Under the pieces are notes generated by a model. It made no database searches. It was not told the DNA's origin and worked only from the letters and a program-made list of their open reading frames with translations. A stretch of 57,587 nt of DNA, from NCBI GenBank assembly GCA_004524565.1, contig SDNZ01000004.1:1-57587 (forward strand). Reading direction: 5' to 3'. This document shows positions 2,341-5,376 of the stretch, piece by piece (the stretch's first letter is position 1; every line of letters begins with the position of its first letter). The translations under genes were made by a program, and so were the position numbers. Source of the stretch: Candidatus Thorarchaeota archaeon. Lineage in GTDB: Archaea; Asgardarchaeota; Thorarchaeia; Thorarchaeales; Thorarchaeaceae.

Positions 2341-2607
2341 TCAGGACTTGTCGATAGAATCGATTGTTCTGATGCATGCAGCAATCCAAGCTATATAGGA
2401 GTTAAGTGCAGCACGCATTGCTGTAAGATCATTAGCTACGATTTCAATTAAGAGCGAAGCGCCTTTTACACATACACTTGTTGTTGCTCTTTCAGAAGGG
2501 ATAGACTCTGTTTCAGGCAATAATGCAGAATAGAGAATATTCGCTATTTGTTCAGATTCTAGGGGGATTTCAAGTATGGAACTCCCCTTGACGTCACTCT
2601 GACTCAT
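2341..2607 (-). CDS. pcc1: KEOPS complex subunit Pcc1
   Basis: ALLPE...IVANDLTAMRAALNSYIAW motif; ATG at 2607 chosen after a GGTG RBS. Confidence 0.88.
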   Translation of the reverse strand: MSQSDVKGSSILEIPLESEQIANILYSALLPETESIPSERATTSVCVKGASLLIEIVANDLTAMRAALNSYIAWIAACIRTIDSIDKS

Positions 2608-3166
2608 TTTCACCTAATCTCCTGACCGAACTCACTCGAATTCTTGGACCAATTTCACTCAAGTCTTTCGTATTGTAGTGAGTCCAAAGGATTTTCTCGG
2701 AAGGAGCATCCTCAAGCCAAATTAGTGCTCTATTTTTCTCTGTGCGTCTTTCTGCAGGATCGGATAATTCTTCGATAGTCAAACTCATTATCTCTGCTAA
2801 ACCTCTAGCAAGTTCCAACACGTGACTACTACTCCCAATCTTGACTCCAACTCCTTCGATAGAACCAACACGCCCCTTATTCGAGGAATCAATCTCACGA
2901 CGAAGCAGTGCACTTTCAAGTCGTAACTTGAAAAGTTCGTCACCCTGTGATGAGAGTATAATCATCTCACCAGGATTTCCTTTCCAAATAGAAATAATGA
3001 GTGCAGCTTGTGCACCAGATTGACGGATTCGAGAAGTTAGCTCAGTTAGACCCATTCCTCCACGATTGAAACGCTCTGTTCCAGGGAGAACTGAGGAGAG
3101 ATCACGCGCAAATGAACGGACTCTGTTTGAAGTCCGTCGCGAAGTTGTGATAAGTAAACTCGGCAA
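2594..3166 (-). CDS. Brix-domain (Imp4-like) ribosome biogenesis protein
   Basis: LITTSRRTS.RVRSF, NRG, GNPG and C-terminal IGPRI motifs; TTG start. Confidence 0.88.
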   Translation of the reverse strand: MPSLLITTSRRTSNRVRSFARDLSSVLPGTERFNRGGMGLTELTSRIRQSGAQAALIISIWKGNPGEMIILSSQGDELFKLRLESALLRREIDSSNKGRVGSIEGVGVKIGSSSHVLELARGLAEIMSLTIEELSDPAERRTEKNRALIWLEDAPSEKILWTHYNTKDLSEIGPRIRVSSVRRLGENESE

Positions 3167-3183: not shown

Positions 3184-3597
3184 TTATTCTTCATCATCAA
3201 GAGGGATATCGTCATCCTCAGATGCTACAATTGTTTCTGCATCGAGTACTACCTCTTCTTCCTCTGTTTCAATATTAGGAAGGAAATCAAGAACATCTTC
3301 AACATCCTCATCATCACGAAGAGCTAAGAAATCTCCAGCAATCCTTTGAGAAATTGCTCGTTTTGCAGCCTTGCCAGCATCAGTGAATGGAACATAGGCA
3401 CCACCTGCGAATAGTAGGTCACACTTGCTACATTTCCAGAGACCAACAGCTTGTCTCTTGAGTGCTCTTGTAGCACATGATGGACAACGAGTTGGCTCGT
3501 TCCTTTTCTTTTCTATATCAAGGACTCGACGACGAAGTTTAGCGCCGTACCTTGGGCCAAATCTACCAGTGCTACCAACCTTCTTGGTTCGTGCCAA
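3184..3597 (-). CDS. rpl37ae: 50S ribosomal protein L37Ae (eL43) with an acidic C-terminal extension
   Basis: GRFGPRYG, CPSC...WKCSKC, FAGGAY; TTG start. Confidence 0.95.
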   Translation of the reverse strand: MARTKKVGSTGRFGPRYGAKLRRRVLDIEKKRNEPTRCPSCATRALKRQAVGLWKCSKCDLLFAGGAYVPFTDAGKAAKRAISQRIAGDFLALRDDEDVEDVLDFLPNIETEEEEVVLDAETIVASEDDDIPLDDEE

Positions 3598-3618
3598 TTT
3601 AATTATCTCCTTGTAATT

Positions 3619-3738
3619 GTGTTGTTTCGTATACGAAACAAGACCGGGCTCTGGAGCCTACCAGTCGCCCGTCTGTTTCTCTTATTAGCCTTACGTTGTG
3701 AAGCAAAGACGGGATGCCCCCGAAAGTGTGGTGCATCC
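3619..3738 (-). ncRNA. Candidate structured RNA element (four adjacent stem-loops) between rrp42 and rpl37ae
   Basis: GGATGC/GCATCC (3712-3717/3733-3738); CCCGTCT/AGACGGG (3668-3674/3707-3713); nested GACYG and GGCT/AGCC stems (3642-3666); perfect 20-bp palindrome TTGTTTCGTATACGAAACAA (3622-3641). Strand assumed from the operon. Confidence 0.5.
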
Positions 3739-3746
3739 TTCAAAGC

Positions 3747-4574
3747 TTATTCAACGTCTTTTACTGCCGCGTTAATCAGGTCCTTGATTTCTTTTGCATT
3801 GTCTAGAGCCATTCCCATGGCTTGGTCAACAAGCTCCAGTGATATAGGACCAGAACCGCCACCCTTCTGAAGAGCTGTAAAATTGTCGTTCTGATCTACA
3901 GCCATTGTTAGCCTGCAGTCCTGAACGAATTCCTCCCTTAGATTTGCATCGATTATCAATCTATTACCAATCTTTGAAACTGTGTGTTCTATTGCGATGT
4001 TTTTGATTGGAAGCTTTACAATGTTTCCAGTTGCAACGACCTTCTTGTCTTCTACCTTCATCTCAGGATATTTGGTTGTCAAGAGTGCTGCATTAACTGC
4101 AATTGATGATGCATCAATAAGATTTCCATCATACTCCAATGGGTAGACATCCGCAAAGACCATGTAGACTTTCTTACCTTCTTCTATGCATAGACTTTTT
4201 GTGTCCACGGTTTCAGATTCACGTACACCACGATCAACTATTCGTGCTAACTCAATCGCATCTTCCTTTGGAGGACCGAGCTCGAATAAAGGAGAAGCAA
4301 TTGGTGACATCTCTGCAGTTACCATTGTAACCCCTTCATCAGGAGAATCTGGATATGGTTCTCCGACCAAGACCTTCACACCTGCTACAACGCTGGTATC
4401 GCCCAATCGTACAAGTGCAGAACCTTCTGCTTTAGCTGGTACGACATTAGCTTCAATCTCAATGTTGCGATATTCATCAAAGGCACGTCCATCAAGTCTT
4501 TCACCCTTTCGGATAAGGTCTTCAATGAACTTACGATCAATGTGACTGAGTGTTTCTGAACTATAGTCACCCAT
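3747..4574 (-). CDS. rrp42: Exosome complex component Rrp42
   Basis: RLDGR..DEYR, AEGSALVRLGDT, ELARIVDRG, DGNLIDA; start placed at ATG 4574 after GGAGG. Confidence 0.95.
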   Translation of the reverse strand: MGDYSSETLSHIDRKFIEDLIRKGERLDGRAFDEYRNIEIEANVVPAKAEGSALVRLGDTSVVAGVKVLVGEPYPDSPDEGVTMVTAEMSPIASPLFELGPPKEDAIELARIVDRGVRESETVDTKSLCIEEGKKVYMVFADVYPLEYDGNLIDASSIAVNAALLTTKYPEMKVEDKKVVATGNIVKLPIKNIAIEHTVSKIGNRLIIDANLREEFVQDCRLTMAVDQNDNFTALQKGGGSGPISLELVDQAMGMALDNAKEIKDLINAAVKDVE

Positions 4575-4575
4575 T

Positions 4576-5376
4576 TTATTCATCCTCCATTATTTCAGAT
4601 TCTCCGAGATCTGCCTCGAGATCATCGTCGAAATCATCTTCACCATCTTCAGGATTTCTGACATAGACGCGTTTTAGGGCGTCTTTCTGAAGCTCATGTA
4701 GATATTTACAGGAATTAATTCCCATCTGCATAGCTTCGATAAGTTCCTCTCTTGTGAAGAAACCATCTTGCTGAAGTAGTGTGATTTCACCAGTTTGTGG
4801 CAAGATAGCCATTGGGACATCACCCTGACCGTATTTGTCTTCTTCATCACCAAGATCTACAAGCAACTGACCATCTGCTTTGCCAACAGCTACAGCAGGT
4901 ACCAGACTCTTCATTGGAATGCCTGCGTCAGCTAGAGCTAGAGAAGCTGCATTGATTGCTGCACAACGAGTTCCACCATCAGCTTGAATGACTTGAATGA
5001 AGACATCAACTACAGCTTTTGGATATTCTTCTAGGAATAATGCAGGTTTCAGCGCGTTTGCAATTACCATTGAGATTTCTTTTTCCCTTCTTGAGGGAGC
5101 AGGTCTCTTTCTATCAGGTACTGAAAACGTAGCCATCCTGTACTCTACTCGTAGATATGCTCTATCATTGAGTGTTAAGTGACGTGGATGTAACTCTCTG
5201 GGTCCATAGACCGCTGCAAGTATGTATGTTTTTCCTTGTCGGATTGATGCTGAACCATCAGCCTGCTTCAACACTCCAACTTTTAGCTCAATTGGTCGTA
5301 ATTCATCGGGTCTTCGACCGTCAACCCTCAAGCCCTCTGGACTAATTAGAAAATCAGGCTTTATTTCTGGACTCAT
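4576..5376 (-). CDS. rrp41: Exosome catalytic subunit Rrp41
   Basis: RVDGRRPDELR, YGPRE, QADGGTR, EEDKYG; acidic tail. Confidence 0.95.
   Translation of the reverse strand: MSPEIKPDFLISPEGLRVDGRRPDELRPIELKVGVLKQADGSASIRQGKTYILAAVYGPRELHPRHLTLNDRAYLRVEYRMATFSVPDRKRPAPSRREKEISMVIANALKPALFLEEYPKAVVDVFIQVIQADGGTRCAAINAASLALADAGIPMKSLVPAVAVGKADGQLLVDLGDEEDKYGQGDVPMAILPQTGEITLLQQDGFFTREELIEAMQMGINSCKYLHELQKDALKRVYVRNPEDGEDDFDDDLEADLGESEIMEDE

Follow-up and report, generated by a model that had tools for sequence, protein, structure and literature searches.

A lineage-specific, probably cis-regulatory region between rrp42 and rpl37ae in a Thorarchaeota-titled family

Introduction

The window analysed in this study is a 57,587-nucleotide stretch of a Candidatus Thorarchaeota genome (assembly GCA_004524565.1, contig SDNZ01000004.1). 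On its minus strand, the genes psmA, SBDS, rrp4, rrp41 and rrp42 are followed by a 149-nt spacer (3598-3746) and by rpl37ae, which encodes the ribosomal protein eL43. Downstream of rpl37ae are an ORF without a Pfam match, then Pcc1, then prefoldin beta. rrp42 is thus the last gene ahead of the spacer. The bordering genes and the features of the spacer, in the direction of transcription, are as follows:

3747-4583, minus strand: rrp42, RNase PH-type exosome subunit (ORF, translation, Pfam RNase_PH and RNase_PH_C)
3712-3738, minus strand: hairpin P1, GGAUGC...GCAUCC, in the minimum free energy (MFE) fold, beginning 8 nt past the rrp42 stop codon
3701-3711, minus strand: pyrimidine/U-rich tail after P1, GUCUUUGCUUC, read from the sequence
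3681-3688, minus strand: TATA-like box CTAATAAG, likely the TATA box of an internal rpl37ae promoter
3651-3670, minus strand: invariant block GGGCGACUGGUAGGCUCCAG, with the family-wide core GGGCGA, then UAG, then YUCC (invariant alignment columns)
3646-3670 (possible extension 3641-3674), minus strand: hairpin P2, GGGC-GA-CUGG / CCAG-A-GCCC, in the MFE fold
3657-3660, minus strand: predicted transcription start, the A at 3659 in UAGG, placed 22 nt past the 8-mer box and after a pyrimidine
3622-3641, minus strand: P3, a 20-nt perfect palindrome with an 8-bp stem and a UAUA loop; its end is 24 nt from the start codon
3607-3610, minus strand: Shine-Dalgarno sequence GGAG, beginning 13 nt before the TTG start
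3184-3597, minus strand: rpl37ae (eL43), 137 aa, TTG start, Pfam Ribosomal_L37ae with E 3.7e-31

To our knowledge, little is known about the control of ribosomal-protein synthesis in Asgard archaea, and few archaeal ribosomal-protein leaders have so far been put forward. In Methanococcus, L1 is autoregulated. Four archaeal leader candidates, for S15 (two types), eL15 and L4, were described by Eckert and Weinberg (2020; PMC7247131); in that article, the terms 'eL43', 'L43' and 'Asgard' each occur 0 times. L7Ae binds k-turns in its own mRNA (PMC5539422). A review of archaeal and eukaryotic ribosomal proteins treats eL43, in the sections consulted, only for assembly timing and intersubunit bridges (PMC9932298). 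Our search of the literature on an eL43/L37ae leader or autoregulation returned nothing relevant.

An original prediction, made from the letters of the window, described the spacer as a single compact RNA of four consecutive hairpins in an Asgard superoperon of exosome and ribosomal genes. The 149-nt gap that it reported between rrp42 and rpl37ae is borne out by the ORFs, their translations and the Pfam matches, and the Asgard setting also holds: Candidatus Thorarchaeota, Promethearchaeota and 'uncultured archaeon' are the titles given to public relatives whose Rrp42 is 63-91% identical. The tight junctions described for the flanking genes apply to the adjoining ones (overlaps of 8 nt and 1 nt, and a gap of 17 nt); gaps of 57 and 75 nt are found elsewhere in the operon. 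In this study, the spacer was compared across relatives at the levels of distribution, folding and promoter-like signals.

Materials and methods

The source genome measures 3.13 Mb and is 86% complete. In the family of the window, eL43 was located in 84 of 86 genomes, and the upstream DNA was examined for 83; in the 84th the gene stands at a contig end, and this genome was left out. An alignment of 82 family sequences was built from 12 nt upstream of the TATA-like box; its first ~50 columns, up to the motif GAYUCC, are almost free of gaps.

The geometry used for the transcription start was taken from Thermococcus onnurineus (PMC5316973) and from the 22-30 nt distances between boxes and tRNA 5' ends read by eye in the window's own genome. 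A primary transcript would be expected to begin ~23-27 nt past the middle of the box, on a pyrimidine-purine step; the predicted UA is at 3660/3659.

Two long-range pairings were defined for the RNA downstream of the box. In helix A, GGGCG and its 5' neighbours pair with a CGCCC-like strand further downstream. In helix B, the partner of the conserved GAYUCC is a GGAGUC-like strand located downstream, with its end 24-28 nt ahead of the start codon.

Results

The spacer is present throughout one family

Upstream of eL43, and on the same strand, an equivalent spacer conserved with this ribosomal-protein gene and adjoining rrp42 was found in 83/83 examined family genomes, 82 by pattern and one (G009, with a CTATAAG variant) by eye. 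In a BLAST search against 40 relatives, the window's spacer gave matches at E <= 1e-5 in 15/24 same-genus genomes, always between rrp42 and eL43. A 19-nt pattern taken from the invariant block was run against 400 genomes of the phylum and matched in 25/27 genomes of the genus and 45/85 of the family. The pattern also returned 23 other loci, 19 outside the family and 4 inside; since both flanking genes are absent there, these matches were taken as chance. Among the 79 family genomes in which both ends could be placed, spacer length ranges from 111 to 233 nt. Synteny and invariant blocks span 16 genera.

In a genome of the sister family of the same order (G025, locus L128), rrp42 and eL43 overlap by 14 nt and the spacer is absent. 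This overlap suggests a gain of the spacer and its conserved blocks in the common ancestor of the family to which the window belongs. In eight further families of the phylum, the rrp42-eL43 gap runs from -1 to 175 nt and the motif is missing; in a tenth genome, rrp42 does not lie beside eL43. Where these other families have a gap, a T-tract and a TATA box stand ahead of eL43, which suggests that an independent eL43 promoter recurs.

Along the gene strand, the alignment reads (GATAGATAYG) in most genera, CTAATAAG, 10 variable nt, GGGCGA, CUG, N, UAG and (G/A)YUCC. The stretch of ~40 nt from the box to GAYUCC is nearly gapless over the 82 sequences, with one-base length changes in only six. Downstream of the conserved block, lengths vary widely, with 48-145 nt between the box and the start codon.

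Some local changes were recorded in single lineages. Upstream of the box, the window's subclade has ACAACGTAAGS in place of the GATAGATA segment (3689-3700 in the window). Three genomes (G012, G017 and G021; loci L013, L012 and L010) keep remnants of a TAATAAGAGAAAC tandem duplication, of which the intact copy is found only beside GGGCGA. The G012 spacer also carries an insertion of ~520 nt upstream of the box (L013:1560-2085), with the sequence from the box through the Shine-Dalgarno undisturbed. This insertion is a dispersed repeat with 25 matches in G012, 10 in G023, 6 in G017, 4 in G021 and 3 in the window's genome, the last including C64:9198-9582 and C62:10712-11006. The matches are at 70-82% identity; the repeat looks MITE-like and contains a low-complexity ORF of 101 aa.

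The eL43 protein of the window has an acidic C-terminal extension of ~50 residues past the Pfam L37ae domain, which covers residues 3-84 of 137 (extension at 3184-3330, minus strand). Across the family, eL43 open frames are ~104-204 aa, most of them >130, vs 89-109 aa in ten other families of the phylum. Two further minus-strand ORFs of the superoperon, at 2594-3166 (190 aa) and 1595-1906 (103 aa), had no Pfam match at E <= 0.001. Downstream of rpl37ae, a Brix/Imp4-like or RpoP-like gene might be expected.

Folding, strand and the P1 hairpin

On the gene strand, the spacer folds at -44.5 kcal/mol (z -3.0), a value equalled by 1/200 shuffles; the opposite strand has a z of -2.96, equalled by 2/200. 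Because the two strands fold almost equally well, folding alone cannot assign the strand. In P1 of the relatives, 21 cells that are G-U pairs on the gene strand are A-C mismatches on the opposite one, and the gene (minus) strand was therefore taken as the relevant one.

The four proposed stem-loops fared differently. P1, P2 and P3 hold in relatives. The second stem-loop (CGUCU...AGACG, with its 'CGUAAGGCUAAU' loop) is paired in only 46.7% of cells over 15 same-genus sequences, and of its loop only the ...CUAAU part is conserved, as part of the TATA-like box. A lack of conservation, which would have refuted the original prediction, was not observed: the spacer is kept across the family, and helices P1 and P3 covary within the genus. 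The picture of a single compact four-hairpin RNA did not survive; P1 and its tail look like the 3' end of the exosome genes and the second loop coincides with the TATA-like box.

For P1, RNAalifold gave 10 pairs over the 15 same-genus sequences, 8 of them with compensatory changes, and 84.7% of cells paired. A strong hairpin stands at the equivalent site in 61/79 family genomes at z < -2 (median z -2.86), with sequences unrelated between genera. The tails that follow it in relatives are U/C-rich, some with runs of U7-U8; in the window's tail no run of >=5 U was found, the maximum being 3 consecutive U. In a pattern scan, P1 came up as terminator-like (match 3722-3710, tail TCTTTGCTTC), and it forms a stable hairpin with a T-rich tail directly after the upstream gene, as a terminator would. 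Terminator-like patterns as a class are not enriched in the region (10 vs 6.5 +/- 3.0 in shuffles).

The TATA-like box and the predicted start

CTAATAAG is nearly invariant over the 82 aligned sequences, and its few variants are A/T-rich (CTATAAG, TTCATAAG, CTTATTAAG and CTTATAGG). The words of the box are among those enriched 12-75 nt upstream of 1,535 ORFs relative to coding sequence: TAATAA 3.9x, ATAAGC 3.8x and AATAAG 3.2x, next to the other upstream six-mers TTTAAG (9.9x), CTTAAA (7.2x), CATAAG (5.4x) and TATAAG (5.2x). The identical 9-mer CCTAATAAG occurs 39 nt ahead of the tRNA-His 5' end on contig C133 of the window's genome. TATA-like boxes were seen by eye at 11/20 tRNA genes called by ARAGORN, 22-30 nt before the mature 5' end, in the forms CTTAAAT, CTATAAG and TTTATAAA-like. 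The promoter-word match, the tRNA-His 9-mer and the A/T-rich variants lead us to read CTAATAAG as a TATA box; it is an A/T-rich 8-bp box like those of its own genome, and A-rich sequence stands upstream of it.

The 39 nt at tRNA-His exceed the 22-30 nt at the other tRNA genes. Only 20 tRNA genes were called by ARAGORN in this 86%-complete genome, one of them a putative tRNA-SeC (anticodon tca, contig C102).

The stretch from the box to GAYUCC is rigidly spaced, which suits a promoter complex more than it does RNA loops. The insertion in G012, which spares the part from the box to the Shine-Dalgarno, was likewise counted for a promoter. In the genera other than the window's in which helix B was seen, this helix begins 1-2 nt after the predicted start.

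A literature search for Asgard start-site mapping, at the level of titles, found nothing on point. Eleven metatranscriptome runs hold small shares of the stretch, and the four that were examined gave short contigs of low depth that carry no start, end or strand information and whose gaps in cover have no meaning. One RNA-library contig, derived from a related strain, spans 3560-3698, from eL43 coding sequence into the spacer, and resumes in rrp42 after 91 unlike letters. This contig would fit either read-through RNA or carried-over DNA.

An invariant G+C-rich block at the presumed proximal-element position

Within the GGGCGA columns of the 82 sequences, C and G are invariant and the remainder are conserved at >=90%. 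The block lies at a fixed 10 nt past the box; one-base spacing changes occur in four sequences, three in the spacer between box and block (G345, G387 and G388) and one inside the block (G012). It is retained in short-leader genera that lack the helices described below (G343 and G345). Relative to the predicted start, GGGCGA occupies about -12 to -7, and no A/T-rich proximal element was found near -10, the position being filled by GGGCGA. The combination TAATAAG-N(8-12)-GGGCG occurs once in the 3.13-Mb genome.

Three other accounts of the block were tried and rejected. A general G+C-rich promoter element is not indicated by the 426 TATA-like words of the genome, downstream of which G+C is flat at 0.32-0.45. 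A regulon sharing a GGGCGA site finds no counterpart either: GGGCGACTG occurs 8x in the genome, and the other 7 copies never lie 8-12 nt after a TAATAAG box. A small coding ORF was also considered, and a reading frame of ~45 codons does run over the conserved block in the window and its nearest relatives. An ORF of at least 30 codons with a start spans the box in 35/82 sequences in frame a and 17/82 in frame c, and invariant bases fall also at would-be third codon positions.

Helices between the block and the Shine-Dalgarno

P2 is paired in 84.6% of cells within the genus and shows no compensatory (two-sided) change; it is conserved in sequence only. Tested family-wide, its outer helix was not better than cross-genus permutation. 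The predicted perfect palindrome of 20 nt was confirmed at P3, 11 nt from GGAG. P3 is paired in 64% of cells of the same-genus sequences, and 5/8 pairs have compensatory changes. This site is taken in other genera by a helix with a 3' strand ending 24-28 nt ahead of the start codon; in the window's genus, the local P3 hairpin occupies the place of the helix B 3' strand. Genome-wide, GGAG/GAGG peaks 12-13 nt before start codons, in agreement with the GGAG of the spacer.

Helix A reaches 7-11 bp in the genera g22, g24 and g26-g28, with C-to-U changes that retain G-U pairs, and its native duplex energy beats the cross-genus mean in 11/16 genera. As a family-wide RNA helix it was not supported by a strict test: at least 6 bp were formed in 16/82 sequences vs 18.3% of cross-genus permutations, and only 7/16 genera did better than permutation. 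In these genera, the sequence complementary to GGGCG lies 3' of the predicted start; for the helix to form in RNA, transcription would have to begin upstream of that position.

Helix B occurs in matched variants, for example GACUCC/GGAGUC, GAUUCC/GGAAUC, CACUCC/GGAGUG, GGUUCU/AGAACC and GACUUCA/UGAAGUC. Native scores exceed the cross-genus mean in 14/16 genera, with <5% of permutations as good in only three. In the window's own genus the score is worse than permuted and the helix is absent. In 27 sequences hand-picked for a visible helix, and hence a biased set, 8/9 pairs changed on both sides and 0/500 shuffles were as good. Over all 70 sequences of 80-105 nt, in which part of one genus is misaligned by MAFFT, pairing was not above shuffles (58.4% vs 58.6%; 298/500), and it was above slid controls (30.5-43.7%). 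Where the downstream decoy strand is missing, the best partner of CUCC is the true Shine-Dalgarno (G001, G003 and G345).

Comparison with known RNA families, repeats and rRNA

The whole window gave 0 matches at the gathering score against Rfam 15, which agrees with the predicted lack of a known family; a permissive search of 3500-3850 returned only chance-level matches, the best at 13.3 bits against a gathering score of 80 (E = 1). Inspection by eye found no C/D-box, H/ACA RNA, k-turn or bulge-helix-bulge in the spacer. A dispersed MITE, which would have undone the original prediction, is not what was found. The spacer occurs only once in its own genome, as does the motif combination, and a repeat origin was rejected.

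The minus-strand loop had been likened to helix 35a of the large-subunit rRNA. This likeness was not recovered: at the sequence level, to which the comparison was confined, neither the loop motif nor the conserved motifs were matched in the 23S rRNAs of two relatives, one of the same genus and one of the same family (G001 and G339). In these two rRNAs no motif was found within a few mismatches, and local alignments were at chance level on both strands. The window's own genome contains no 23S rRNA.

Discussion

The spacer between rrp42 and rpl37ae is a real, lineage-specific cis-regulatory region. On balance, we favour the view that it joins a terminator-like hairpin, an internal promoter with a predicted start near 3659, and a structured 5' UTR. 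Read on the gene (minus) strand, it would then probably be a composite region of control at a gene boundary, common to one Thorarchaeota-titled family. This reading builds on the observed conservation, spacing and uniqueness, on the covariation of P1 and P3 and on the promoter-word match; the start site, termination and any regulation are put forward below as predictions. P1 and the U/C-rich tail after rrp42 would end or limit transcription of the exosome genes, or shield their 3' end. Transcription would restart for rpl37ae from an internal archaeal promoter with CTAATAAG as its TATA box, at the A around 3659 in the conserved UAG. The resulting 5' UTR of ~60 nt would carry a hairpin, P3 in the window's genus and a GAYUCC/GGAGUC-like helix in most other genera. 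This hairpin would end ~12 nt upstream of the Shine-Dalgarno and would probably stabilise the 5' end of the mRNA or tune translation.

Archaeal termination is thought to rest mainly on the U-tract. Archaeal oligo-U terminators are reported to involve aCPSF1 together with a U-tract (PMC8716108). P1 resembles oligo-U and bacterial intrinsic terminators in being stable, in lying right after the stop codon, in its U/C-rich tail and in its compensatory changes. Unlike archaeal oligo-U terminators, the window has a weak U-tract with no U5.

The promoters described for T. onnurineus consist of a BRE, a TATA box of 8 bp with its centre near -27, a proximal element near -10 that is A/T-rich, and a pyrimidine-purine step at -1/+1 (PMC5316973). 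The spacer resembles this standard in its 8-bp A/T-rich box and in the rigid spacing to a conserved UA/G ~22 nt downstream. It departs from the standard in carrying GGGCGA at the site of the proximal element, and at this one promoter only. A plain promoter leaves a G+C-rich invariant block at -10 unaccounted for. We take GGGCGA to be a dedicated, gene-specific control site, which could act as an operator that overlaps the start or form the first part of an RNA leader.

Some bacterial mRNAs begin with stabilising 5'-terminal stem-loops, and growth-rate-controlled bacterial promoters have a G+C-rich 'discriminator'. The helix that would start 1-2 nt after the predicted start in most genera may be compared with the former, and the G+C-rich block between the box and the putative start of a ribosomal-protein gene may be compared with the latter. 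The bacterial systems differ in their enzymes and factors, and the likeness is one of analogy only.

With archaeal ribosomal-protein leaders, the spacer shares that it is conserved, structured, gene-specific, partly covarying and located upstream of a ribosomal-protein gene. It differs from them in that its best-conserved blocks are invariant in sequence rather than covarying, and one of them is TATA-like. Resemblance to the rRNA binding site, which is frequent but not obligatory in such leaders, is not seen in the spacer at the sequence level.

These comparisons frame the main alternative, which we consider possible but doubtful. The stretch that starts at about the box, takes in GGGCGA, P2 and the downstream helix, and reaches the Shine-Dalgarno might, with a similarly low probability, be an autoregulatory RNA leader of eL43, carried by a read-through transcript or by one started upstream. 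We regard it as rather unlikely that surplus eL43, a zinc-ribbon rRNA-binding protein, binds this leader and lowers its own translation, and as no less tentative that the anti-Shine-Dalgarno-like YUCC switches between the decoy GGAG strand and the true Shine-Dalgarno. As expected of such a leader, the block is unique within the genome and stands immediately ahead of eL43 in every case. In g22, g24 and g26-g28, GGGCG and its flanks pair downstream over 7-11 bp with G-U-keeping C-to-U changes, and the native energy of helix A is above the cross-genus mean in 11/16 genera; the strict test of the same helix was no better than permutation (16/82 vs 18.3%). For helix B, the covariation in the 27 selected sequences (0/500 shuffles) and the 14/16 genera above the cross-genus mean speak for a leader, but on 70 sequences the helix is not above shuffles, and it is absent in the window's genus. 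The RNA-library contig across the spacer and the preference of CUCC for the real Shine-Dalgarno where the decoy strand is absent also point towards such a leader. P2 without compensatory change, the missing likeness to the 23S rRNA of two relatives and the retention of GGGCGA in short-leader genera that lack helices (G343 and G345) point away from it, and the near indel-free spacing with TATA-like variants fits constraint at the DNA level. If transcripts start further upstream or read through from rrp42, GGGCGA could be part of an RNA leader; a possible eL43 leader would comprise the part from GGGCGA to the Shine-Dalgarno. GGGCGA...UAG...YUCC with the helices would then be a Thorarchaeota-specific leader or start-overlapping operator through which eL43 senses its own surplus and controls rpl37ae, a proposal that we hold only tentatively.

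Two other origins have less in their favour. The hairpins, the promoter-like box and the family-wide conservation would also suit a small non-coding RNA, either free-standing or excised, whose function has nothing to do with rpl37ae. Such an RNA is improbable given the strict linkage to eL43 (83/83), the lack of further copies and of an Rfam match, and the fact that no C/D-box or K-turn arrangement was seen by eye; moreover, no terminator-like signal lies between the block and the Shine-Dalgarno, and the structure runs straight into the ribosome binding site. MITEs often contain palindromes and hairpins, and the genus does harbour a repeat family that looks MITE-like; both facts would be in line with a mobile-element remnant or a functionless, chance palindromic spacer. 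We consider this highly improbable, as the spacer is single-copy, syntenic and conserved over 16 genera with invariant blocks, and the dispersed repeat in G012 differs from it in sequence and is inserted into it.

Under the favoured reading of hairpin, internal promoter and structured 5' UTR, the spacer illustrates the way in which rpl37ae became separated from the superoperon's exosome genes in one lineage. The GGGCGA block provides a short, sharply defined target at one gene. If it acts as a promoter element only, the region would amount to a normal internal promoter plus terminator whose -10 region is unusually G+C-rich. If the block responds to eL43, it would represent a new protein-nucleic-acid recognition pair, the first eL43 leader described and the first ribosomal-protein feedback element of the Asgard archaea, one that would have arisen as the spacer split rpl37ae from the exosome genes.
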